Shown here: piece after piece, positions 5,507 to 61,573 of the stretch
Layout of the letters: the number at the start of each line of letters is the position of its first letter
Numbering within the stretch: position 1 is the first letter of the stretch
NCBI GenBank assembly: GCA_003971905.1
Contig: RSEE01000007.1
Location: 620,001 to 684,000 of the forward strand
Source of the DNA: Moniliella sp. 'wahieum'
Lineage: Eukaryota
Direction: 5' to 3'
DNA: 64,000 nucleotides
Program-made: the position numbers and the translations under genes
The notes under the pieces: generated by a model
Database searches by the model: none
Seen by the model: the letters and a program-made list of their open reading frames with translations, nothing else
What the model was told of the DNA's origin: nothing

Positions 5507-9492
<3,986 letters not shown>

Positions 9493-11723: not shown

Positions 11724-12490
11724 CGTACCTCTCTCATCTTGCTTCTCCCTGTTCCTTGCTCTATCCTTCTTTCTCTTTTTACGATTACGACTTGTACGAC
11801 TTTTTGTACGACTGGGGATGGAGGCGGAGGGGGGGCTTCTCCTACCCTTTTCCTTTTCCTTCTTCTCTTTTTCTCCTTTGCCTCCACGGACGTGGCGAGG
11901 CGTACGACACTATTACGGATGTGGGTCGCGGCAGGGTACGTTGGATTGCCTTGCATGGCGCATGTCCACACCTCTGGCTCTCTCTCTCTCCCGCTGCCAC
12001 CCTTGTGTGACGATATACCCATTCTGATGAGGGGGAGCACCTCCCCTCTTTTTTGTCCTGTGCCCTCTGTCATCACCGGTCTGTGTACGGTGGAATGCCT
12101 GGCGGGCCGCATGAAAACGTATTATACAAAGAACGATCGTTTAGTCCTTGATCTGCATCACGGCTGCTGGCGGAGACTGCGGTAGGAGGGTGGAGGGTGG
12201 AGGGAACTATCTCTAGCAGGGAAGCATGACAGAGATAGGGAGGGGTGCTTTGCGGTCACTAGTATATTGCCAGAGGCTGCTGACATGTGACACTCGAAAA
12301 GGCCAGGTCTGTGTCTCTGAGATCTCCATGGGCCATAGCAACAAAGACACTGCTGTGATACGCTGTGGGCGGCGCTTAGCTATTGGGCGGCAGGGACAGG
12401 CGGCACCTTGCATGCATCCCGACCGGCGATGATGCGCGTGGGGCGCACGGCATACAACCATGATCTTATCATTCACCTTGTTGCTGCGAT

Positions 12491-12517
12491 GTCACTAGTC
12501 ACTAGTCACTAGTCACT
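12491..12517. repeat. Palindromic heptamer array (ACTAGT-C)x3+
   Basis: gtcactagtcactagtcactagtcact; a related ACCGGT-C array lies at 12949-12967. Confidence 0.9.
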
Positions 12518-13302
12518 GCCCCCGTCCCCGCCTCCCCAGGGGAACAGTGTGGAGTTCTACTGGGGTCTCTTCCCCCCAGATGGACCCATCTAGCAAAGCA
12601 GACCCAGTCTTCTGGGCGAATCCCGCCGCTCCTGCTCTCGCCGCACGAAGAGAATGGGGCCCACGCCTGCATGATTCCCGCGCCACCCAAAGTCAATTCT
12701 CTCATCGGCGCGGCAAAGACGCGCGGGGGAGTGTCCCTTGCATGCCAAGTGGGGTTGTGCTGTGGTTCAACTGCAAGGCGGCGACGCAAGGGGTAGCTTC
12801 TGCACAAGTGCGAAGGGCAGAGCCGAGGATGCCGGCAGTACGACGCATGAGGTTGATGCATGAGATCTGGGGCGCCGCAGACACCCGGAAGTCTATATAT
12901 GCACAACAGAGCTGGTGTAGAAGCAGGAGGGGTGGTTGGTGGTTGGTGGTCACCGGTCACCGATCACAGGTCGCAGGCGAGTCCTACTGCAGTGCTGCTC
13001 TGTTCTGCAATGCCTCCCCCTGGCGTGGCCGTGGTCGATGGTCGATGGACCCTCATTCCAAGTTGCTGGGGAGGGTCAATGCAACAGCATTGGAAGACGT
13101 ACCCATCTTTTGCATATATAGACTCCTCTCGTCTCCCCACCCAACTCTCTCCTTCTTCCCGTCCCCACCCCCTTCTTTCCTCGCTCCAGGCCCCTAGAAA
13201 CGCTCACTACGGCATTCGCACTCTCTCATCCTTTCTCCTTTGCCCCCTCTTCGCACCTTCTCTTGTGACACACCGAGAGGAAAGAGTACGGCGTATCGCA
13301 CC

Positions 13303-16103
13303 ATGCATTATTCCTCTATGTTCATCTCTCCGATCCAGGTTCTTGGCTTGCTCTCGGGTCTGGCATCCCTATCCACTGCATACGCAGTTGCCATTCCCAA
13401 CAATAACCCCCGTCCTGGTAAATCCCCGTCCCTAGCTGCCCCCGTATTGCTCTCGCGGGAGCGTGGCACCAAACAACAGCCACGTGCCTTTCGTGCCGTA
13501 GACCGCACTCTGTTCGGGCCTCGCTCCAACTCACAACAGGACAAGAACCCATGGCACACCGTCACCAAGAACGCCGACGGAAGCCACTCGCATGAGTACA
13601 ATCTCGTTCTCGAGCCCGCTGGCTCGCTCCCGACGGGTATTGGCGCAAGACGGACACGATCAATGGCAAGACCCCAGGTCCAACGATCGAAATTGACGAA
13701 GGGGACACGGTCACCATCCATGCCTACAATGACAACCCGTCCCAGATGACCCTCCACTTCCACGGAATCGAACTCAAGCCTTTCAATGACGGTGTGCCTG
13801 GTGTCACGCAGGTATGTTTCCTCCCCCTCCCTCTTTCCCCCTATCAATCATAGAAAAAAAGCACACACGTCAAGCTTCACAGGCTCGAGAAAGCTGACCT
13901 TTGACCGTTGTTTATGATGAAGTGGAACATTCTTCCCTACGGCACTACACTTATACGTGGCAAGCGCATCAGCATGGAGCATTCTGGTACCACTCGCATG
14001 CGCGTGGAACGTACGTATATGCATACATCTGACTTCATCTACTGGTATTCGTTGTTCTAGTCACATGTACTAACCAACTTTTTTTCCTGTTTTGTTGATC
14101 GTCATGGGTATTTTATTTTTGCTCTCTACGCATAAACAGCTATGCCGACGGTTCCCGTGGCTCGATTGTGATTCACCCCGCGCAAACGTCACTCGGCCAT
14201 GGAAGCTGATCAGCAGCAACAAAGCCGACCAAACGGCCATGGAGCAGGCGTATTCCAAAGCGGGTGTGCTTCAACTGCACGACTGGCGGCACGAGTCGCT
14301 CGACTCAGCGTTGGTTCGCTACCGCTACACAGGACAAGACCCGTACTGCATCGATTCGGTATTGATCAACTCGCAAGGTCGCATGCAATGCCCCGAGCGG
14401 GCTTCCTTGCAGCGCAGGGCAAAACCGGCATTGACGGCTACGATGGATCCAAGCTTGACCCTACCGGTTGCATTCCTCCCCGCGCCGGGTTTGTTGACAG
14501 TCTGTCCAATGTCAACCCGCGCGAATGCACCAACACCACCTCGGCCTACGGAGTATACCCTGCTTCCAAGTACGCTTCGGGCGATGGCAAGTGGGCTGCC
14601 TTCCACTTGGTCAACACGGCTTCGCAGCATGAGATCTGCTTTAGCATTGATGGGTATGTCCCGTTCCTCTCTGTTTTTTTTATATCTCTTGGCGCATACA
14701 TATGCATTCTATAGGGTGCGATGAGCAAAACTAACCGTCACTTTTCTTCTTTCAAGACACACCCAATACATTGTGGCATCCGACGGTCCTTTTGTCAAGC
14801 CCCAACAAGTGCAAGTGAGTGACCTGTCCATTGGGATGCGCCAAACTGTGCTGGTTCGACTGGATCAACCCAAGGGCCAATAACTATCCGGGCTGCGCTT
14901 TGCAATTCGCGGGAGCAGATCGCTTCGGGGTACGCCGTGTTGGACGTGGACGTCCCCAGTGACAAGCAGGGCTCGAGCAAGGCGCCGAAAGCGAGCCAAC
15001 AGGCACCGCAATCGCCTTCCAAACCAACCAGCAGCCTCGCCAGCAAGTCCGTGAATGCGGGCCCAGCCACCATCACACAATTTTCGGGCGAGGATGCGTC
15101 CCAGTTGAATTACCCTGCTGTGGCAGTATCCAACCCAGCCATGTCAGTACAGCCATACATGCCGGGCAGCGGTAGTGACGTCCACGGACTACCGCAAGCG
15201 CCTGCCAAGTGGTCCAATGGCTGGACTTCGGCCGATGGTCCCGTGACCAACTGGCTCCCCTCTTCCGACAAGACCAAGGTTTGGTTGGACTACAATGGCA
15301 AACTGCTCAATGGTGCCAAAGTACAAGATGACGTGACCCTTTCTCCCTTTCCGAGCCTATCTCCACCCCAAGGAAAGGCCGACTACACCTTCCGGGTAAC
15401 GATCAACGAAACCAATGCGGTCAGCTGGGCTTTGAACCAAGTGCCGTTCAACAGTCTCAACTACCAAGCCACCCCTCTTCTCTACCAGCCCCACGACCCC
15501 CGCCCAGGACCCCAAGCAAACGATCCTCAACGTCGAGGTGGGGAAGGTGGTGGACATTATCTTTGAGGACTTGGGCAACGGCGACTTTGCTGACGTCGCC
15601 CATCCCATCCACAAGCACCAAAACCCCGTGTGGGTGCTGGCGTTTGAACGAGGCAAGCGCTTTACTTGGTCAGACGTGTCGGCGGCCGCGGCGGCCAGGA
15701 ACCAGTCGGGCGTCAACCTAGTTGACCCGCCCAAGCGCGACTCGGGATGGTGCCAGTGGGAGGGTATGCGGTCACACGCCACTACGTTGTCAAGCCGGGC
15801 GCGACCATCCTGCACTGCCACCTGGTTGCGCACCACCAGAGGTACGTTTGTTGCCCCTCCCTTTTGCAACAGCACTGCGACCAGCACGCGCACATGCATA
15901 AGCTTGTCTTTTGGTGTTGTGGGTTGATATATTTACTGACGCGTTAACCCATCTCCTTGATTCCTTTTTCGTACAGCGGTATGGCCGTCGTATTCAAGGA
16001 GGGCGAGTTCGACGCGAGCACTGTGCCTGAGTGGGCGCGCACCTATCCCCATGCTATCCCTCCTTACGTGGACGAGGGTAAGATTGGGTTGGACGAACTG
16101 TGA
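13303..16103 (+). CDS. Secreted multicopper oxidase (laccase-like)
   Basis: Signal-peptide-like N-terminus. Cu motifs TLHFHGI (~13750), GAFWYHSH (~13980), HPIHKH (15601) and LHCHLVAHHQ/SGMAV across an intron. Several introns; stop TGA 16101-16103. Confidence 0.88.
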
Positions 16104-26817: not shown

Positions 26818-27315
26818 GGCGAGGGGAGGGGGAGGGGGGGCGAGGAGGAGGAGGGAGAGGTGGTGGGAAGAGGAGGGGATGGGGCAGAAAAAGTATCTTG
26901 CCTGTCGAGTGGTAGCAGCTGTCGCTCGCTCGGCTGGGCCGGGCGGGACTGGGTGAGTGCGTGTGCACACGCCTGGTCCTGCTCTGCAATATACGCCCGA
27001 GGGAGCCAAACGACGCACCAACGCCATGGCCCGCACGGGGGCAGTGGGCCTGGCGGCGATTCCCCTGCCGCAGAGAGGCGGTGGGTGGGCAGGGTGCAGA
27101 GTGGCGCGGTGCGGTGCGGTGGGACGGGGCGGCAGCGGCAGCGAGTGCCGTGCCGTGCGCCCGGCTGCACCTTCCACCTGCGGCAGGCGGGGTGCAGCAG
27201 GGTGCAGTGCCTGTTTGTGCCGCCGGCTCTGCTGCCTGCCGCACGCGAGCGCACGCCTGGCACGCCGGCCGCTGCAGGGGGCGAGCTAGTGCGGGCACCC
27301 CGTGCATGCTCGGGC

Positions 27316-28646
27316 ATCGATCATGCATCCGATCATGCCGCTGGCTGCTGGCCCTCGTGTGGGATGGGTGCTTTCCCGATCCCTTTCAGATCTCAGTCGC
27401 TCAGCAGTCACTCTAGTCACTCCTAGTAGTCAGTACTCAGTACTCCCCGTAACCCAGTATCCAGCCGTGTCGAATGGGCATCGGTCACCGACATCTGCCC
27501 TCTGCCACCCCGTCTACGCGAGAGTGGCAGTGGTCCCATGTCACACGCGAGCGCATCGCAATGGCGCCCGCTGTGGCCGCTTGCCTCCCCAGGCGATCCC
27601 CCATTCGCAATCGGGGCTGAGGCACTGGGGCTCAGTCTGGCGCAGCGCTCAGCCGCTCAGCCGCTCACGTCCCGCTCCTCCTCCCCGAACGAGGGGGCCA
27701 GGAGCAGGGCCACAGTGTGATCCGCTGCTGCGCCATTGCAAACACATGTGGATGGCGGGGGGAATCCCCTCGTCGTCCTTCCCTCGGCCCGCCACCCCCC
27801 CCACACGGCTCATGTGGGTTTGAAAGCGCACCTGCGCCCTGGGGCCGGGCAGGCCTGGCTAAACGCTGAGCCAACGCTGAGCCTCAGCACTGACGTAGTA
27901 AGCACTACTGGTCTGCTGTGCTCCACCGACTCGTACGGACTCCGAGCGACCCCCTTCAAATTCTGACGCACACGCTTGCTATATTATCCGTCCCGGCGCT
28001 GTTGTGCCGACGGGGTCTGAGGCCCTGAGATCCTGAGATCTGAAATCAACGGGCCCTGGGCACTGTACACACCGAGTCCATCTGAGTACCTGAGTACACA
28101 CGCTACAACCGCCGCTCCCCTCTCCAACCGCGCTCTCTCTTGTGCTGCTCTCAGCTCGCTGTGGCTGGCTGAACGGGGGTATTACGCGTTACGCTGGAGA
28201 GGGCACTCACCATCACACACCCTTTTCATATCCATGCACCATGCATCACCCAAACGTCACGCATCTAAGTTTTTCCCTATCGTCTATCGTCCCTGTCACA
28301 TCCACATCACGCACATCACAGGTCCCAGCACCAAACTTTTTACACAGCCAAGCACCATCAGCGCACCAGTATACCCAGTGCATCAGCACCATCCCATCGG
28401 AGCAGGAAGGCGCATGAGCACGAGATCGGAGCAAGCGAAGCATGGCGATGGGCGATGACGTTGAACGTTGACGTTGACATGCATTGAAATTCAACCAGCC
28501 CCAGATCCCACAGGCGCCCCGGCTCCAGCATCCCATCGAGTCTGAGATCTGCCATTTCATCTGAAATCCGGCCAGAGTGTGAGATGCGGGTCGTGTAGAT
28601 CGAAGTCAATCCTAAAGCAATCAAGCTCAAGCTTCAAGCTTCAAGC
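27316..28646. repeat. Cluster of palindromic heptamer arrays in the GH5-NMT1 intergenic region
   Basis: ATCGAT-C-ATGCAT (27316), tcAGATCTcag (27386), (AGTACT-C)x2 (27432-27444), ttACGCGTtacg (28182), AACGTT-G (28464), (AAGCTT-C)x2 (28629-28641). Confidence 0.8.
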
Positions 28647-31002: not shown

Positions 31003-31176
31003 GGGGCGGAAGGATGGTGGGAGCCGAGTGCGGAGTAGCGCGCGCCGAGCCGCAAGCCGCTCTGTTCCCGGCCGAGCGGCCCCGGATCATCGATCATCTT
31101 CCGGCGCTTGCTGAGGTAAGCACGATGGGGCGGCTGTGCCACGTCATATGTTCCACTGCACTCACTCTGGAGCCGC

Positions 31177-31458
31177 CTAGTCACTAGTCACTAGTCACTC
31201 GATGATGGGGCGACTCTTCCCACGACATCCGGTGCACAGTGGGCATGAATTGGTGGGCGTCGGGCAAACGTTCCGACTATAGGGGGGCGGGGGGGAGGAG
31301 AGAAAAGAGGGGAGAGAAAAGGAAAGTCAAACGAGGAGAGAAGAGGCGAGGCCAAGTCGGGCAAAGGAAAAAAAAGAATGGTGACACGTGCGAGATGACG
31401 ATGATCGATGATCTGTCGATGATCGACCATAAAGCTATCGCTTTTGAAGCTTGAAGCT
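31177..31458. repeat. Palindromic heptamer arrays between NMT1 and KRE6
   Basis: ctagtcactagtcactagtcact (31177-31199), gatgatcgatgatc (31400), tgaagcttgaagct (31445). Confidence 0.85.
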
Positions 31459-35081: not shown

Positions 35082-36060
35082 TTGAGCTTGAAGCTTGAAG
35101 CTTTTGACCTACTAGCTAGCTTTACTTGTGGGTTGAAGCTGTTGAAGCGCTGGCGCGATGGCCAAGTGGTCTGGCTTTTGGGTGGCTGTGTGGGGGGACA
35201 ATGCTGGCACAATGCCGGTAACAATGCTGGCAAAACTGGGCGAATGGGACCGCGTCCTGAGTGATCGATCTAGTGATCGGAGTTGTTGACGAGTTGGGCT
35301 TCTTTTCGTAGCACTGATGATCGATGATCGATGAACACGGATGTTGATCGATGATCAAGGATGCATGATGCGTGACGCCCACACCAGCCTCTGTTCGTCT
35401 CCTGCGTCCTCTTCCTGTGCCTGCAGGCTGGGCGGAGCACTAGCGGAGCTGCTCCATGCTTGGAGTTCACCCGGGTACACTGCCGCCATGCACATCTGCC
35501 TGCGCCCCCCTGGTGTGCGCCGGCGTGGCCGGCTGTTCTCTTGCACCGACAGCAGGCGGCCAGCAGAGCAGTCCAGACGGCGCGCCTGGTGCTCGCGCTC
35601 GCACGCTTCGCTCCCGCGTTCTGAATCTGAGAAGGCTAAGATCTGCCTCTCAGATCTAACGCGTAACGTTCAACCATCCAAATATTCTGGTTCCAGGATC
35701 GTTCGAATGCCGACAACGCCGATGAACTTGACCGGCGAACATGCTGTACGGACTGGTTGTTTACGCCGTTTACGCGGTTACGCTGCATGTGAGAAGCTTG
35801 AAGACTTTTGGAATTCTGGACGCTGCAACTGAGAGTTGGACACGTGTATTGTCCAGCCCTGTACCTGACTAAATCGATTCCATGACCGGATCGGCGCATG
35901 ATGCGCACCATGCGCCCAAGGACTGGGAGGACTTGGAGGTCAGATATACGAGCACGTGACCAGGCGTAGCCTTATTAGGCCTTAGGTGGTCCTGGCGTCT
36001 ATCGTCATGCATGACACCATCCGTCAGCGCGTCAGCTGCGATACTAGTTATCGATTATCG
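35082..36060. repeat. Cluster of palindromic heptamer arrays upstream of KRE6
   Basis: (AAGCTT-G)x2 at ~35091, (ATCGAT-G)x2 at 35320-35332, AGATCT-A-ACGCGT at ~35652, ACTAGT-T-ATCGAT-T at 36043. Confidence 0.8.
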
Positions 36061-47560: not shown

Positions 47561-47854
47561 CACTGATGAGCTTGATGCATGATGAATGGTGGCGGATATA
47601 TATGGGTATAACTAGAATCCAGCTGTGGTATAGGGAGACAAGTGGGCATGCTGGCAGTGGGTGCAACATGCACATCAATCAACACATATGGGTGGTGGCA
47701 ACCGGTGCTGCACCAATGCTGGAGACGCACTTCAACGTCTAACAACTGTACGCGCCACCCAGAAGAACAGAAAGGTGCAGCGCATGCCCTGCAGTCGAGT
47801 CGGACCGATCGGACTGTGGCGTTGGGCCGATGTGGCAGCTGTGGCAGGCGAATG

Positions 47855-50800
47855 TGATGCATGATTGCATCAGTACTCACTAGTCACTAGTCACTTAGGG
47901 GAAGCATGGCTGTGAGAGCTGCTACCCCGCCGTAGCCGCAGTCTCTCGCCAAAGCTGCTGCGCATCGCCAGCTATCGTCTTCTATTCCGACTGCTTCCAG
48001 AGTGGTACAGTGTCAATTGCATGCCAATATTCAATCGATTTTGACTCTTTTTGTGCATATACCATTGCTTAAGGCGCTTATAAGGCCTAATTACTAACTG
48101 CTGCTATTATTATGGTCTGCGCCTGCTTATACAACCCGTGTGCGTCAGGGGCCTATAGCTAGTAATAGCTGTTGCTCGAGCGATAGGAAATGGTGTGTTG
48201 GGGGGAGCAATTGATGGTGTGGCTTGGGCTTTTCTGTGCCTGACTTTCTGAGGCCGGGGGGAGATCGGACAAAAAGGAAGACAGATTGTGTCACACGCGC
48301 CACTGGACAAGAAGAGTGCTCTCGTTGGGCCAATTGTGTGGCGTAGTAGAAAAGTCTGATGGGCTCTGGACCAATGGTGGCCAGCTTAATGTTGTTTGAG
48401 CTGTGTATCGCAGGCCGTGGCCCGCCGTGGCCGGGGGGCGCACGTCCCAGTTTTAGATATACTTTCTGAAGCGTTCCTACAGTTCATGCATTTTTGGTCC
48501 ATTAGTAACCATAATGCCGCCAAAAGCTCACAGTGAACTGAGAGATCGATTTGAGAGTTGCCGCCAGGGAGGGCCAAGAAAGTTTGGCAACGCGTGATCT
48601 AGCCCGAAACGAACCCGGTGGGGGGGCAGCCAGGGCAAGGCGGTGTATAGGATAGAAATAGCGCAGTCTTTACTGCCTCTCCGCCAGTCATTTACCGCCT
48701 AAGGGTATGGTCCTGCGGCGCTTAATCGTCCCAGACAAGAGGCGTCCGTTCCCTGGTACATACATAGTCATCGATGCGATCATATATATTGAGTGCTGAT
48801 GCGCTGATGCACTGATGCACTGATGCATGATACTGAGAGTACGAGTTCCTGATTACATTGAGAACTGTACTCAGTTGAGTACTCAGGTACTCAGTACTCA
48901 AATCTCAGACTGAGTACCGAAGGCTTGACGCTAGCTTGAGATCTTGAGAAGAAGCTTGAAGCTCTTGAAGCTAGCTAGCTTGAAGCTCTTCGAGGGGTTG
49001 AACGTGAACAACGTTGAACGTTGAGACGTTGGAGGAACGATGCATGATGCATGATGCATGATACTCGTGTAATGCATGATGCGTGATGTATGCATGATGC
49101 CGCATGCCAGCACATGTCAGTGTCAGCGCAATCCCGCATGTACCTGAATCACACGCGCCGCACAGGGATACTAGTCACTAATCGAGCGCTCAGCCATCAC
49201 GCGTCACGCCGCCGCTGTCTTCTACCTAACTTTTCTCCCCATATTCTGTCTTTTAGTACGGGCCTCCTCTGAGGATGCCCGAGGCCTGAGGCTGAGGCTC
49301 TTCGGCCTCAGGCCGGCCTCAGACTCTGAGGCATGATGGACTTGATGGGCTTGATGTAATCCCCCCTAAATTTGGACCGTCGTCATCGAGCGTCATCGCG
49401 TCATCGACGTCATCTCTCTTTTTTAGTAGCTTGAGAAATCAACGAAGCTTTTGAAGCTTGAAGCTCAAACTACGCGTTTGGCGCTTGTAATGAAGCTTTA
49501 TGTGCGTGATGAAGCAGATCGTTGATGGCATGATGTCCAACTGGCGAGCCCTGACGTTGCGAGGTCAGAGCTGAGAGGAGAGGTCCTCGGGCCTTGGGCG
49601 TTATCTGTGGGCTCAGAGTGTGGCAAAGTTCCGTGCAACGCTGGAGTCCACTACATTTGTCGTGTGTTGTTATATCAATATCGCCGGTCGCGGTCGCCGG
49701 TCGCGTGTTGCGAAAGCTGTTGTGTGGTGTCGGGTTTTTGTCGGTTACGCGTTCCCTTACCACATGCCAGTGACATTTATACCGGCTAAGTGGACGACGT
49801 GGGATTTGCTCTCTATTACCACCATCGAAGTTAGGTCTTACTGCGGCGAGCGCGCATCCGGTCCTATACTTGTGGTATTCTGTGACATCACAGGTATCAT
49901 CGGTACCACACGCGCCCAGCCACGCATTATCAGCGATTGTGGTTTTCACTATTCTTCATTTCGCTCTATTTGCCATGCCGAAGAGAAGCAATCGGTTGTT
50001 GGGGCTGTGTGGGTCACATTGGAGGAGATTTACTAGTAACTCTGGGAGCGCGGGGGGCCTACTCGTTCACAGGTGCATTCTCCTTCCTAAAAATATATTA
50101 TTGTGGAGGACTGGCCTTAGGCCTTAGGCCTTTTCACTCTTTCGCCCGACCTTTAGTTTCCGAGGCCTACTCATATATAACTACTGAAGGCTGTTCGAAC
50201 CCCTACATTTTCCAAGTAAGAAATGAGGCCTGACGCCTGAAGGGCAGGAGGATCTGAGGCACAAGGCACAGGTCTGAGGGCGAGAGGCCTATAATAGACC
50301 TCCACCCATTATTCTAAAAAGTTCAACCACGAGAATATCGACCTGGCATTTGTTGCATCGTAACCAACTGTGGATGCCATCAGATGGCCTCTAAAAGAGC
50401 TAGGGAGCTGTTCACGAACACGGAGAGTGAACGAAGTATCCAGTGGTGGAAGCGGTATCGGTTGTGGAGAGAGAAGACAGGAGGAGACGCGAACATAGGA
50501 GCACAAAAGGAAAGCGCAGGTGCGCCGCCAAAAACACTGAGACCTACTGCCAGCGTCGCATAGAGCCTGCCTAGGTCAAGCTAAGCGCTGACATCAACAC
50601 ATCACCACAGACTATATTGCTTTGCTTCTCTTGAGGGTTTTCATGAATCCTTTTGGGGTCCTCTGGTCCGCCGCATCACATATGAGTCACATCGTGATAT
50701 CGGTGTGTCAACGTTCAGTACGTTCAAAACGTTCAACGTTCAACTCGCCTTTTCTCTTCAAGCTTCAAGAGCTTCAAGCGAGCTTCAGGCAAGCTTCAAG

Positions 50801-53800
50801 CTTCAAGAGCTTCAAGCTTCATAAATCATCGATCAAGTCGATCAAGCCTCAAGCTCTCAAGCTCTCAAGCTTCAAGCTTCAAGAGCTTCAAGGCGCACCC
50901 TCTGAGGACGAGTACTGAAGTTCGAACCTTCGGCTTGAAGAGCTTAAAGCTTGAAGCTTGCAGAGCGTGAAGAGCTTGATCGTTAGCTTGAACCTTACCG
51001 AGCGTCGCTTCTCCGTCTGTCGCTTCCGTCCAAGTGGCTGACTGTTTTGCAAGGAAGGGCTTCCACGTGCGCCCCCTCCTCTGTTCGAGCCATTGGGGCT
51101 AAGCCTTAGCGCCCTTAGCGCTATGCTAAGGACAGGGACAGTGCGGGGCTTGATGCGTGGGGCTGGTGGGGCGTGGGAGGGCGTGGCCTAGCGTGGAATT
51201 GGCGGCGAATTGGCGTGGCGCGTTGGAGCAGCAGGTTGGAACTGTTGGAGCCGGTACATGGTGACCGGTGACCGGTGACCGGTGAAGCTTGGCTGAGGCG
51301 CTGAGGTTACCGGTTACGCGTTACGCGTTACGCGTTACGGGTGATTCGATTAATGATCTTTGACGTGTGACATGTGACATGTGACAATAGTGACACGTGG
51401 CGTGACGCCATGCGTCATGCATGCCACCGGTGACCGAGAACCCAGAACCGGGAACCGGGAACCGAGGACCGAGGACCGAACGGCAGGGGTCTGCGGCGCG
51501 CATTCCACAGTTCCGGCACACCCTTCTCTTTGCACGCACGTACACGAGAAGAGACACATTAGTACTTTTACGTACCGGCTGTACCCGTGATTCTTGCACC
51601 GGCGACCGGTGACAGATCACCCACATCTGTTGCCGGCATCATGCATCACACATACATCCAGTCTCAGATCTGATTTCCCACGTGTCACGCTCACGCCCCT
51701 ATCACCTAGTGTCACATGTCACATGTCACATGTCACCTGTCCCGTGTCCCATGTCACAGTCACATGTCACATGCAATACACACCAGTACCCAGTACTGAA
51801 CTCAGTTGAGTTACTCAGACTGAGTGTACTAAGCGTTGAGTGTTGAGTTAACACTCAGTTACTCAGTACGCGAAGGGCTCTGCACTTGGTACACTTCTGC
51901 TTGGCATGACGCTTCACCATCAACATGCAATCGGCATGTGCATGATAGTTGCCTCTGCGTCTAGAAAAGACAGTCATTTGCTTTTGGGCGGGGCAGGCCG
52001 ATGCCTAAAAGTTGTGGCAAAGACCAACATGTGCATGTTGTGATTCCGGGCGCGATCATCGATCCATGGAAGACTGGCTGAAGACGATGAACAGAACGAC
52101 AAGAGAGGATGATATGCGGAGTATCCCAACAGAGAAGAGGCAAGATATAAAGGAGGAATTATAGCCGTTTGTAAGGAGATGCATGATCCACTTGAAGAAC
52201 GTAATGCTATTGACATGATGTCTGTGTAGTTGCAATGACGCGCCAACCCAGCGAGAACCTCTGTAAGCTGTGGCCCTGTAACATGTAATGCATGGAACCT
52301 GTATATATATCCCCTTTTTCAAGCTTCAAGCTTCTCGGTGTCCAAAGTATACTGTACTCATCCCTACTCTCAGTACTCCGTACTCAGTTTGAGGATCTGA
52401 GTACTCAACAGATGCAACGTTCAAACCCCTTCCAGATCTTATTCTCAGCTGGTTATCTTGTTGGTGATACCTGATGGTGGCAACACACACACTTCAGAGC
52501 AAAGCAATTTAAAGCGCGTCTCTCCACCAACGTGTCTCGTCTCGATTTCCTTGCTCATCGGGTATATCTCGCCAGTAGCCATCATGCATCACGAGTCACT
52601 AGCTTCTTTTAACCTTCGTTCTATATCCAGCGGCCCGCCTTCCTTCTTCCCGTCCGGCCTTGCAATGGAGCGCGCCTGCATGAGAGCCTATTAGGCATGG
52701 TACATACGACAATTTTTGGCCACGGATCTTCGCCGAGACAAACTGTGGTGTCCTCTCCCTGAAATCCCATTCCGGCGTCCGGCCTCATATTCAATGCACG
52801 CTAAGAATAGAGTCTGTGGTTCCGTAGGCGTGCAAGGCCACACCTTTGTATAATCAGCCCCAGCTGCCCCAGCATGTTCAGCCAGGCTCAGCCTGCCTAT
52901 GCAATAAGCGCCCACACCGCTCACATGTCACAAGCATCACATCCCAACTACCCCACAGCCACAAAGATACGTGCAACATGTGAGACTAGTGACTAGTGAC
53001 TAGCTAGTGACTAGGACTCCGCTCCGCGGGCCTATTAGATCTTAGAAGAGACTTTATCGAATGCACCCCCAGAGAAAGGGACCCACCAGAGCCACACTAG
53101 AGCCACCCTGGGCCCTACTATCACCACTGGCCGTTCCTGTTCCCAGTACGCAGTACACTCAGGCCTTAGGCTACTCACGCGTCACGTACTCAGTACTGAG
53201 ACTCAGTACGCACCGTTATTGAACGATGATCGATGATCGATGAAGCTAGCGATCGATGAAGTTCACTAGAGTGAAGCTTGAAGTCACTAGCTAGTCACTA
53301 GTCACTAGTCACTAGTCACTGGTCACGGTCATCGATCATCGATCATCGAACACTGGTACACATCTGTAGGTGACCGGTGACTCCTGCGACGAGCGACAAT
53401 CGATCTAATCCATGGATGGAATGCAATCCGAAGTAGCACATCCTGTACCGTGTGTGAAATGTGGCGCGTCACAGCCTGACGGGCCTGACGAGTGCCGAAC
53501 AGGGCCGTGTCTTCCCTTCTCACATTCAGAATCTTCATACCTGTCGTTCCAAGGGGGGGGAAAGGGGCTACTAGGATGGCTGCAGTCTCTATCTGCTCTC
53601 AGGCATCAGGGAGGCCTCGGGCGCTCAAGCCGGTCAGGCCTCGGGCTCTGTCCTGCCATTTTGCCTTTATAGACTCTTCCCCCCGTCGTTCGCGTTCACG
53701 GATCACGCCCATGATGGCATGTCACATGTCACATGTCACGAGGATATCAAGTGATTGGGACTTCAAGTGTCCGGCCGCACCTCGGTCCAGAAATCCCCCA

Positions 53801-54460
53801 AAACACACTCCCGAAGAGCTGGGCAGGCAAGTGTCGTGACCAAGAGTTAATTCGTTCAGCATTGAATATTGAATATTGAGATCTGAGATTGATCGATCGT
53901 CTTGGTGGCTGCTGGCGGAGGTTGGGGCGGGGGCCTGTAAGACTCTGGGTGTTCACATGTCACACAGTGGGACTGAGTAACTGAGTACTGAGTCTTTGTA
54001 CTGTGACGCCAGAGGCGCCTGATGCTCTTAGGCCCACCAAACAGTGGCGGTGCGGCCAGCAGCGCTTGCATAATGCTCTGTAAACACGTAACGAGAGTGT
54101 GGCGCCCGCCTTGTCTCTCCTTTGAGGCTGAGCGCGCTGTGAGCGCTGTGAGCGTTGGACACCGCTAGAGTGCACCGAGCCCAGAGAGGCACCCTCGGTC
54201 CTCAGTCTGAGAATACTGAGCCCTGGCCTGGGGAGTACGCCGTAACAGCATCCCATCCCATACTCCGCCTCTTCGATCGCCACTTCTCAGATCTCAGGGT
54301 CTGTGTCGGTTGGTGTGGGCCATGCTGGGCCATGCTAGGCCACGCGTCGCACATGCATCGGCCGCCTATTGTCACCATGCCACATGTCATGCCACCGTTC
54401 AAGACAGGCACTTCCCCAGCCCAAGAGCATGGGCGCCTTGCCCATGTCACCGGTCACCAC
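47855..54460. repeat. Gene-free region densely packed with palindromic heptamer arrays and long-range inverted repeats
   Basis: Dozens of (ANNNNT palindrome + 1 nt) arrays, with main blocks at 47857-47895, 48790-49100, 50708-50992, 51264-51400, 51678-51870, 52320-52420, 52984-53380 and 53718-53982. Confidence 0.9.
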
Positions 54461-59106: not shown

Positions 59107-60812
59107 ATGCCCTTCGTCAAGTGGAAGAGGGTGCAGATGACGAGTCACTCACTTCGGAGCAGATAGCTTTCTTGGACGGGCGATGATGCTGATGAATTGG
59201 AGGGGTCGTCGGACGAGGAAGGGGAGGGGGAAGACGAGTTTGACAGGGAGACGGAAGACGAAGAGGAGGCCGTATAGGGGCCAATTCGACCAACGGTGAT
59301 GAAGACGACGACGACGATATGATGCCCCCCACCCTGCAAGATGCCGAAGAAAACATTGCCGCACTCCAGGGTACAGACCTGAAGATTGTCCAGCAGCGTA
59401 AGCAGGAGACTGTGACGGTCCTGACCAACTGGAAGAACTTTGACAAGTCGGACATGAGCGGTGCTCGGAGTCGGGCAGAGTATGTGGAGATGCTGCTCGA
59501 AGATATCTGTTCCTACTCTGGCTACAATCGGTTCTTGGCCGAGAAGTTTTTTGTCCTTTTCGCTCCCGCCGAGGTACGTGATGTGCTTAGTGGCGTGAAT
59601 TCAATTTCCGCACCGTGCTGACGTTTGTTGGAATCTCTCTTCGGCACTGGAGTTTTTGAGGCGAACGAGGTGCCTCGCCCTGTCACAATCCGCACCAACA
59701 CCCTAGGCACCCGCAGGAGGGACTTGGCCCAAGCGTTGATCAACCGCCGTGTGTCGCTGGAGAGCCGTTGGGGGAGTGGTCAAAGGTGGGGCTGCAAGCC
59801 TTTGAGTCGTCGCTATCTGTGGGTGCGACGCCAGAGTATTTGGCCGGGCAGTACATGTCTTCATCCTTCCTTCCTTCCTTCCTTCCTTCCTTCTTTTTCC
59901 TTCCTTCCTTCCTTCCTTCCTTCCTTCCTTCCTTCCTTGCATGCATTGGCACCGCAGCCGGGGGACCGGGTGTTGGATATGGCATCTGCACCCGGCGGCA
60001 AGTCAACGTACCTGTCGGCGCTGATGCAGAACACGGGGGTGGTGTTTGCCAACGGCGCCAACAAAGCGCGCACCAAGTCGTTGACGGAAAATGTGCACTG
60101 GTTGGGATGCAAAAATGGTGGTGTGCAGCTACGATGGTCGTATGTTCCCCAAGGTGACGGGCGGGTTTGACCGCGTTCTGCTCAACTCGCCTTGCTCTGG
60201 CACTGGGGTGATCAGCAAAGATGCCAGTGTCAAGACCCACAAGGGTGAGCGCGATATGCAGTTGCTCACCCACTTGCAAAAACATCTGATCTTTTGCGCC
60301 ATTGACTCCATCAATATCCGCTCGCCGACGGCGGGGTACGTCGTTTACTCGACCTGTTCGGTCTTGGTTGAGGAAGACGAGGAAGTGGTGGAATATGCAC
60401 TGCGCAAGCGGCCCAATGCCAAGCTCGTGCCCACGAGCGTCAACTTTGGACAGGTTGGTTTCCCCTCCTTCCGGGGCAAGAAGTTTGACGCGAAGATGCC
60501 GCTTACCAAGCGGAGATTTTGACCCACGTGTGCACAATCTCGATGGCTTTTGTCGCCAAGCTCAAAGTCAGCCCCCGCGACAAGACCCACCATTCCCCCA
60601 AATATCAGGAGGAGGAGGATCCGCAAATGACCTACTTTGGCTCCCGTTCAGGCGCAGCCAACCCCGCCTCCACAGGCAAAAACAAGAAGGTTGCCGCCGC
60701 GAAGGCGGGCGAGTCGCTGTTCAACGATGAGGATGAGGATGCCTCCTTGATCCAAAAGTCGCTGGAACAGGCCAGCAAGAAAAGGAGCAAGGGCAAGTCT
60801 TCATCTAGGTGA
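59107..60812 (+). pseudogene. NOP2: NOP2 25S rRNA m5C methyltransferase, probable pseudogene
   Basis: FEANEVPRPVTIRTNTL, GATPEYLAG, VLDMASAPGGK, FDRVLLNSPCSGTGV, VVYSTCS, HNLDGF. Microsatellite expansion, substitutions at conserved residues (DAPC>NSPC, ANDAN>ANGAN), stops in the 5' part and no normal N-terminus. Confidence 0.78.
59864..59938. repeat. (CCTT)n microsatellite, ~75 bp, inside the NOP2 copy
   Basis: tccttccttccttcc... read directly, with one interruption (ctttttcc). Confidence 0.95.
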
Positions 60813-61530: not shown

Positions 61531-61573
61531 GTCACTGGTCACTGGTCACCGGTCACCGCGTAGTGCACTAGTC
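61531..61573. repeat. Heptamer array upstream of the SCH9-like gene (ACTGGT-C x2, ACCGGT-C, ACTAGT-C)
   Basis: gtcactggtcactggtcaccggtcacc...gcactagtca. Confidence 0.75.

Follow-up and report, generated by a model that had tools for sequence, protein, structure and literature searches.

Palindromic heptamer arrays on a T-N-A scaffold in the intergenic DNA of Moniliella sp. 'wahieum', with a tentative model for the birth of their units

Short heptamer arrays, in which a T-N-A triplet alternates with a 4-bp palindrome, are described here from the non-coding DNA of the fungus Moniliella sp. 'wahieum'. The DNA analysed, called the window, is one stretch of 64 kb from one genome (assembly GCA_003971905.1, contig RSEE01000007.1, positions 620,001 to 684,000 of the forward strand); all module counts refer to it, and coordinates are counted from its first base on that strand. 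This stretch is nuclear DNA of a eukaryote, its genes are split by introns, and an exon of its KRE6 gene is closest to Tilletiaria anomala (69% identity), other Ustilaginomycotina giving 58-67% and none of the recorded proteins being identical; the sequence is accordingly treated as that of an Ustilaginomycotina-like basidiomycete. GC content is about 58% window-wide and 51-53% at 46-54 kb, the observed/expected ratio of CpG is 0.89, and tRNA and Rfam searches of the window gave no match. The following genes were recognised.

2.5-5.3 kb: DEAD-box helicase
5.5-8.5 kb: ubiquitin hydrolase
about 15.5 kb: multicopper oxidase fragment
about 21-23.4 kb: PI4-kinase
25.6-26.4 kb: GH5-like gene
28.7-30.1 kb: N-myristoyltransferase
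31.8-33.8 kb: KRE6/SKN1
39.3-42.6 kb: F-BAR and Paf1 genes
about 43.1 kb: ribosomal protein S15/S19
59.6-60.5 kb: NOP2-type methyltransferase
61.6-63 kb: C2 and kinase gene

The non-coding DNA between these genes follows a simple grammar, T-N-A plus any 4-bp palindrome (the core), repeated with a period of 7 bp, in which the scaffold triplet is TCA or TGA in 87% of modules. Counted as the 10-mer TxA-palindrome-TxA with the same spacer base on both sides, modules number 95 against a mean of 2.2 and a maximum of 7 in 100 first-order Markov simulations, which gives a density of about 1.5 per kb over the 64 kb, mostly in non-coding DNA. Palindromic hexamers overall are not enriched (1064 against some 1000 expected). 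What is extreme is the way they are arranged. All 31 pairs of the same palindrome standing 7 bp apart belong to the ANNNNT class, and palindromes with C, G or T as the outer base contribute none. A palindrome fills the four nucleotides between two T-N-A triplets in 113 of 212 cases (53%); the corresponding share lies between 1 and 9% in every one of the 15 other triplet scaffolds. The control, 319 kb from 52 other eukaryotic loci, gave 17 of 295 (5.8%), which is the chance value; these loci came from a metagenome scan with the KRE6 exon, the closest being at most 59% identical over more than 180 aa, and serve as negative controls only. The spacing is as strict as the scaffold: direct repeats of the same TNA enclose a palindrome in 95 of 132 cases (72%) at a gap of 4 nt, in 2 of 18 at a gap of 2 and in 1 of 76 at a gap of 6. 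The spacer is constant: of the 113 cases that enclose a palindrome, 95 have the same base on the two sides and only 6 have complementary bases (G/C). C is the spacer of 49 modules, G of 34, T of 9 and A of 3. The cores draw on 13 of the 16 4-bp palindromes that exist, GCGC, TATA and TTAA being absent.

Furthermore, no other repeat period is as common in the window as 7, which accounts for 43 of 145 Tandem Repeats Finder rows, all of head-to-tail units; the consensus is a rotation of TNA plus a 4-bp palindrome in 34 of the 43, where 2.7% of heptamers would be expected. The 95 modules make up 71 runs, of which 55 have a single core; two cores are found in 9 runs, three in 6 and four in 1. Modules of the form TNA-core-TNA that stand alone (about 41) are more numerous than isolated core-TNA-core arrangements (10). 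No phase coherence extends past single arrays, since multiples of 7 do not stand out among the distances of 21-84 bp between modules, and runs follow one another with random polarity (CC 15, GC 14, CG 10, GG 7). Runs with the same core cluster locally to a marginal degree (9 against 4.9 expected, P = 0.056), and these are mostly broken arrays. No description of such a palindromic heptamer grammar was found in the full-text literature searched.

Several relatives of the module were noted. Variants with one, two or four extra bases can keep the 4-bp palindrome beside a TNA: at gap 5 this holds for 24 of 51, at gap 6 for 26 of 76 and at gap 8 for 15 of 38. Period-8 and period-9 relatives occur at 28018-28097, 48797-48831 and 50756-50892, with units such as TGA-GATC-C, TGA-GTAC-C, TGA-TGCA-C, TCA-AG-AGCT and TCA-AG-TCGA, which carry one or two extra bases by the palindrome. 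Cores are also duplicated alone with period 4 (AGCTAGCTAGCT, CTAGCTAG, GGCCGGCC) at 48951-48994, 52997-53010, 53284-53297 and 49308-49321, which gives TNA-core-core-TNA units of 11 bp.

Individual arrays were delimited as tracts, each the maximal perfect period-7 stretch around a module; there are 74 module-bearing tracts. Their boundaries are written as a pair of numbers, so that a (0,2) tract begins at the T of a T-N-A and stops 2 bases past the last T-N-A, and a (2,0) tract is its mirror image. The main arrays and clusters are listed below.

12281..13879: intergenic module cluster, including (TCA-CTAG)x3 at 12492-12515
27314..27330: ATCGATc-ATGCATc; one TCA is common to two hexamer palindromes, and both outer scaffolds are incomplete
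27386..28643: intergenic cluster between the GH5-like gene and N-myristoyltransferase, also with the period-8 variants TGA-GATC-C and TGA-GTAC-C
31087..31454: intergenic cluster between N-myristoyltransferase and KRE6/SKN1
35089..36057: intergenic cluster upstream of KRE6/SKN1
36041..36060: ACTAGTt-ATCGATt; a scaffolded module only in the part TTA-TCGA-TTA-TCG
47573..54456: densest module island, holding 62 of the 95 perfect 10-mers
47870..47895: TCA-GTAC, (TCA-CTAG)x2, TCACT; heterotypic switch, right tract with boundary (0,2)
51260..51285: GG-(TGA-CCGG)x3-TGA, that is ACCGGTg three times; perfect period-7 tract of 26 bp, boundary (2,0)
51283..51292: heterotypic TGA-AGCT-TGg (AAGCTT), sharing the last TGA of the CCGG array; right scaffold incomplete
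51307..51343: TTA-CCGG, (TTA-CGCG)x3, TTA-CGGG-TGA; palindrome switch in register
51349..51354: isolated ATTAAT; T-N-A does not stand on both sides, hence not a full module
51361..51386: TGA-CGTG (chimeric), (TGA-CATG)x2, TGACA, the ACATGTg array
51710..51773: decayed (TCA-CATG) array of about 9 units, in which the unsymmetrised variants CCTG and CGTG are kept
53861..53886: AT-(TGA-ATAT)x2-TGA-GATC-TGA-GA; right-anchored ATAT array and left-anchored GATC module with one TGA in common

The initial annotation had seen arrays that change their palindrome and hold the 7-bp register. Its readings of ACCGGTg three times (51264, 51271, 51278) followed in register by AAGCTTg (51285), of ACCGGTt (51309) followed in register by ACGCGTt three times (51316, 51323, 51330), of ATTAATg at 51349 and of ACATGTg at 51370 and 51377 are all exact, and the five ANNNNT palindrome types that it counted close together lie within 51264-51383. 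Switches that it placed at other loci were likewise found, namely AGTACTc-ACTAGTc-ACTAGTc at 47872, AATATTg-AATATTg-AGATCTg at 53865, ACTAGTt-ATCGATt at 36043 and ATCGATc-ATGCATc at 27316; at about 54443 the c-ACCGGT-c is present, but the first element reads CCATGT and is no palindrome. It had also expected different ANNNNT palindromes to stand 1 nt apart more often than at other short spacings. Heterotypic pairs indeed number 9 at a gap of 1 nt as against 2, 2 and 2 at gaps of 0, 2 and 3 nt (9 of 15, binomial P = 0.004), and by start distance there are 9 at 7 and 9 at 14, with 2 each at 6, 8 and 9. Its proposal that units behave as interchangeable modules on a T-N-A scaffold is borne out by the specificity of the scaffold, by the equal spacers, which hold at 8 of 9 heterotypic junctions as well, and by the randomness of neighbouring cores.

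Neighbouring cores are in fact unrelated. In 4 of the 9 heterotypic neighbours the cores differ at two positions, that is by one symmetric pair, and in 5 of 9 they differ at all four, where random pairs would give 40:60. Since neighbouring cores are as unlike as random pairs, point mutation followed by later compensation is not the main route of switching. The terminal unit of the 51307-51343 array is chimeric, its left half being the new core and its right half the old one; the whole order, TTACC-GG, (TTACG-CG)x3, TTACG-GG-tga, fits an older CCGG pair whose second seed changed from C to G and then served as template for three new units. The array at 53861-53886 fits instead a right-anchored, AT-seeded array and a left-anchored, GA-seeded module that share one TGA. 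Decay of CpG as the link between cores, from ACGCGT through ACGTGT or ACACGT to ACATGT (seen at 51363 and 51392), was considered and set aside as at most a minor route, because the CpG ratio is 0.89 and five of the nine switches alter all four positions.

Decayed copies are few. Non-palindromic TNA-N4-TNA repeats number 37, near chance (about 34), and one-off variants that break the hexamer hardly exceed their simulated numbers, with 9 and 7 against 8 for the A and T positions and 9 against 6.9 for the inner pair. Variants with unequal spacers are in excess (18 against 4.8), as are those in which the outer T or the outer A is missing (28 and 25, where simulation gives about 8), and the excess cases split 13:11 where 1:3 is expected (P = 0.002). 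It follows that the modules are either young or short-lived, or that something preserves the hexamer.

The ends of the arrays carry the most specific information. Tract lengths are quantised, with peaks at 12-13, 19-20 and 26-27 bp, so that 38 of the 74 tracts have lengths of 7m+5 or 7m+6; the counts for length modulo 7 are 8, 8, 3, 9, 8, 19 and 19 for remainders 0 to 6 (chi-square P = 0.0019). Tracts under 14 bp also number 38 of 74. In these short tracts and in the clustering at 7m+5 and 7m+6 the arrays differ from slippage microsatellites, which should arise by whole-unit duplication and so span two units or more with no preferred phase. The commonest boundaries are (0,2) with 13 tracts and (2,0) with 5, and the equally probable (1,1) does not occur (P = 0.0007). 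The arrays thus end in half-palindromes and can be written as W(PW)m, where W is T-S-A-N1-N2 and P is the reverse complement of N1N2; the dinucleotide between seeds completes the palindrome in every module. Among neighbour units with one mismatch, 21 carry it in the array-distal half and 4 in the near half (P = 0.0009), a result not independent of that for the boundaries.

Other constructions of the arrays were tried and rejected on these grounds. A 7-bp tandem or target duplication would give tracts of at least 14 bp, and the observed peaks begin at 12-13; a 3-bp duplication around a 4-nt insert would give 10-11 bp, unlike the observed tracts. Fold-back copying of the seed predicts complementary spacers, which are present in only the 6 cases given above, and T-S-A as the mismatch-resolved remnant of a transposon end between 4-bp target duplications predicts a mixing of G and C within arrays that is not seen.

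Based on these findings a model is proposed, to which a probability of roughly 0.4 is given, that the units are born by a half-templated insertion of 7 nt anchored at T-S-A and are then amplified by slippage, with switches coming from separate or mutated seeds. Symmetry seems to be made at the birth of the unit, because arrays end in half-cores and it is the array-adjacent half that is conserved. The elementary product would be a 12-mer W-P-W, in which the seed W is T-S-A-N1-N2 or its mirror N2'N1'-T-S-A. Each birth would add 7 nt beside the T-S-A, consisting of a direct copy of the seed and 2 nt templated from the seed's own end, and a 4-bp palindrome could thereby be made from any sequence that flanks the triplet, the spacer base staying constant. 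Once two copies are present, replication slippage may gain or lose whole 7-bp units and would leave the ends unaltered. A switch could arise where different cores are seeded on the two sides of one T-S-A, or where the seed dinucleotide undergoes a point change before further births, which would automatically be symmetrical; possibly, deletions between T-S-A microhomologies also place unrelated modules in register. The nearest known chemistry would be that of a staggered break with a hairpin or snap-back intermediate at its end. The insertion event, this hairpin or snap-back step, the role of slippage and a breaking activity directed by T-S-A are all inferred from the arrays, and the extra-base variants beside TNA look like the usual scatter of repair products. 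The arrays as a whole may be lineage-specific, fast-turnover 7-bp micro-repeats that come from a mutational process, a conclusion held at somewhat less than even odds; they are probably not conserved signals.

The resemblance to known repair products lies in the form of the ends. W(PW)m arrays resemble a 5-nt target duplication with 2 templated P nucleotides: the 5-nt seed, T-S-A plus N1N2, is repeated as a duplication of fixed length, with (0,2) or (2,0) boundaries in 18 of the 74 tracts, and the inserted bases are the reverse complement of the end of the adjoining flank, as in footprints of the hairpin type. For hAT, Transib, RAG and Mutator-like (MULE) systems PMC5499845 documents flank hairpins together with end-joining footprints, and the excision footprints of hairpin-type DDE elements described there share with the fungal arrays a short direct duplication that encloses the reverse complement of the adjoining flank, together with arbitrary palindromes and length variants. 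Unlike them, the fungal arrays lie in a window in which no such element or transposase was found; their duplication is 5 nt long and anchored at T-S-A, with exactly 2 templated nucleotides on one side only, and their products are tandemly reiterated, up to 8% of the DNA in one island. PMC5728401 and PMC9303309 treat snap-back synthesis during alternative end joining, and the proposed births of fungal units would share with synthesis-dependent microhomology-mediated end joining the addition of short insertions copied inverted and direct from break-adjacent sequence. The fungal arrays are also like hairpin-prone slippage microsatellites in their short tandem units, their self-complementary strands and a probable gain and loss of whole units, but they consist of dozens of unit sequences under one grammar, with single modules dominant and quantised ends.

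A number of points weigh against half-templated birth. The evidence comes from 64 kb of one genome, key classes such as the 18 tracts with (0,2) or (2,0) boundaries are small, and the insertion is deduced from arrays rather than from empty and filled sites. Boundaries of (0,0) and (2,2) also occur, in 6 and 4 tracts, lengths of 7m+6 are as frequent as 7m+5, and the 13:5 ratio of (0,2) to (2,0) on the forward strand, which becomes 11:7 when tracts are oriented by the spacer, is left unaccounted for. No transposase, reverse transcriptase or nuclease domain, dispersed repeat or TNA-flanked element came out of the scans of the window. End-joining scars are normally far more variable than a product dominated by 7 bp, and to our knowledge synthesis-dependent microhomology-mediated end joining has no tie to a 3-nt motif or to one dominant 7-nt product. 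P nucleotides are confined to the seed's variable end and are never seen at its T-S end, which would need a polar process. The strict requirement for T-N-A with a preference for G or C at N, the one-sided templating and the dominance of exactly 7 nt are not accounted for by the proposed steps.

The rival that survives best, though it is unlikely, holds that the arrays are ordinary microsatellites and that palindromic units expand best by way of slipped-out hairpins, with a 5-bp stem of two cores and a T-S-A triloop, that escape repair. Palindromy and scaffold would then reflect which heptamers expand most readily and not the manner of their birth. The head-to-tail order and 7-bp period of the arrays agree with it, and predicted single-strand folds do place T-S-A in a triloop closed by the cores (5-bp stems, -6 to -10 kcal/mol, z from +0.2 to -4). 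Arrays rich in GC give better folds than their shuffles (z = -4.0 at 51258-51295, -2.4 at 53288-53350); AT-richer cores, however, fold no better (z = -0.9 and +0.2), and the energies are weak. Plain slippage of an asymmetric unit also occurs, as a non-palindromic TCA-CTGG is duplicated at 61531-61549 and followed, up to 61555, by TCA-CCGG-TCA-CC. Slippage cannot create a single-core run, however, and 55 of the 71 runs are of this kind; tracts peak at 7m+5 and 7m+6 and not at 14 bp or more with random phase, and different neighbouring cores are unrelated. Moreover, the structure gives no reason for T-N-A alone and never A-N-T, C-N-G or G-N-C, nor for the near absence of 6-bp cores (1 of 76).

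Rather less likely is a functional origin, in which cis-elements are selected for dyad symmetry as sites of dimeric or tandem proteins, or as promoter, insulator or small-centromere DNA in the island at 47.8-54.3 kb. The setting speaks for it: modules keep, at least for the most part, to non-coding DNA, and their density is highest in about 6.5 kb of GC-poor sequence without detectable genes (47600-54300, the lowest GC of the window at 51-53%), where open reading frames of at least 110 aa have no Pfam match and modules cover 8.4% of the bases (47800-54300). In a basidiomycete genome, which is compact, a small centromere is one possible identity of this island and an extended regulatory desert another. 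The best argument for a function is the scarcity of broken hexamers, with hexamer-breaking variants barely above chance and spacer variants in excess, but rapid turnover would account for the lack of decayed copies as well. A protein site that takes 13 cores and yet requires perfect self-complementarity is hard to imagine, and neither phase coherence beyond single arrays nor a preferred polarity of runs is seen.

Excision footprints of DNA transposons that duplicate T-N-A, with 2 bases of each inverted terminus forming the palindrome, make an improbable source. IS5 and PIF/Harbinger-type elements have a 3-bp T-N-A target duplication, and a 3-bp direct repeat around a 4-bp palindrome is formally the expected product; equal spacers, as in a duplication, and the excess of isolated TNA-core-TNA over core-TNA-core agree with this. 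Such footprints, however, predict tracts of 7m+3 and not 7m+5 or 7m+6, and at least 13 families of elements with distinct terminal dinucleotides would be needed. The PIF/Harbinger-type superfamily prefers A/T in the target triplet, as against G or C spacers in 87% of modules. The window yielded no TNA-flanked element with terminal inverted repeats, its scanned open reading frames (sets of 20, 103 and 73) hold no transposase, reverse transcriptase, nuclease or HUH/RAYT domain, and the window has no dispersed repeats besides the heptamer arrays themselves.

Symmetrisation after the fact, whether by template switching in hairpins (quasi-palindrome correction) or by gene conversion between units, is about as improbable. 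The initial annotation had offered re-symmetrisation of existing units by hairpin-templated correction, and in that form this is not borne out, given 25 asymmetric neighbour units, the decayed array at 51729-51757 and the weakness of the hairpins. Four of the nine heterotypic neighbours do lie one symmetric pair of changes apart, and broken-core variants are scarce among modules with an intact scaffold. Correction should hit both halves, however, and the 25 one-base variants that adjoin perfect units have the change in the distal half in 21 cases; five of nine switches alter all four core positions, and 6-bp palindromes cannot fold alone. Judging from the folds, each core in an array hairpin would pair by its right half with the left half of the core that follows, and correction would so yield chimeric, not palindromic, units. 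Stop codons in all frames and bZIP or homeodomain sites were considered and dropped, as they leave arbitrary palindromic cores unaccounted for.

Bacterial repeats were compared as well. REP, BIME and REPIN elements are hairpin palindromes of at least about 20 nt with a conserved flanking tetranucleotide and a RAYT transposase; identity with these was rejected, the fungal units being 6-bp palindromes of eukaryotic nuclear DNA with no HUH/RAYT domain in the scanned open reading frames. In a scan of prokaryotic genomes, the 24-mer (TCACATG)3-TCA was found in 42 stretches from many bacterial phyla, and some of these arrays switch to TCACGCG in register (L055, L063, L081). The fungal arrays are like bacterial heptamer repeats in their 7-nt period, intergenic position and occasional in-register switches. 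The bacterial (TCACATG)n arrays, however, keep a constant GTSAC with a variable dinucleotide, their commonest boundary is (1,1) (7 of 42), which no fungal tract has, and the loci next to them lack the many-core grammar, as against 13 cores on one scaffold in the fungus. One mechanism across the two domains was therefore dropped, since grammar and boundaries differ. The GGGNATC heptamer repeats of Xanthomonas and Nostoc have G-rich constant words, according to PMC4692102.

Arrays with the same core also occur as inverted pairs 85-285 bp apart, the copy with G spacers standing first and the copy with C spacers second. Such pairs are 51361-51405 with 51691-51735, 52984-53012 with 53282-53310 and 53224-53243 with 53329-53348, one of them complementary at 29 of 29 positions, and the decayed array at 51710-51773 is likewise an inverted partner of 51361-51405. 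These pairs may be chance, because they share no internal sequence and overall run polarity is random. Large palindromes or MITE-like elements were rejected as their source on the same two grounds and on the order of the partners, which does not fit a single inversion. At 49260-49330, dense TGAGGCC and GGCCTCA words (CTGAGG and CCTCAG) in both orientations form a local inverted repeat.

Other repeats of the window stand apart from the heptamers. A (TCCT)19 microsatellite at 59864-59938 lies in an open frame just upstream of the NOP2-type methyltransferase domain and is probably an intron or a low-complexity linker. A degenerate G-rich repeat of GGCGGA and CGGGG units lies at 9178-9248, within about 3.5 kb (8.6-12.1 kb) that has long open reading frames on both strands without a Pfam match.

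The finding is to be classed with templated-insertion scars or microsatellites, with a real chance of an undescribed DNA transaction. Even under slippage favoured by hairpins, a eukaryotic genome with heptamers as the leading repeat class, 34 of the 43 under one palindromic grammar, would be unusual. It is conceivable, though doubtful, that the grammar is the genome-wide signature of an undescribed break-and-rejoin activity in a basidiomycete lineage, by which T-S-A would be recognised, cut 2 nt away and resealed in a hairpin-like manner. Each event would then write a new 7-bp unit, a 5-nt duplication with 2 self-templated bases, and this would amount to a sequence-directed mutational process of a new kind, or else to a minimal mobile unit, by which intergenic DNA is built, perhaps including a centromere-like island. 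In conclusion, if half-templated birth is true, the arrays are a clean and countable record of one specific DNA transaction, at about 1.5 events per kb; sequence-specific break and repair could then create microsatellites from nothing and form part of the intergenic DNA, and palindromes of any sequence would be generated without selection.

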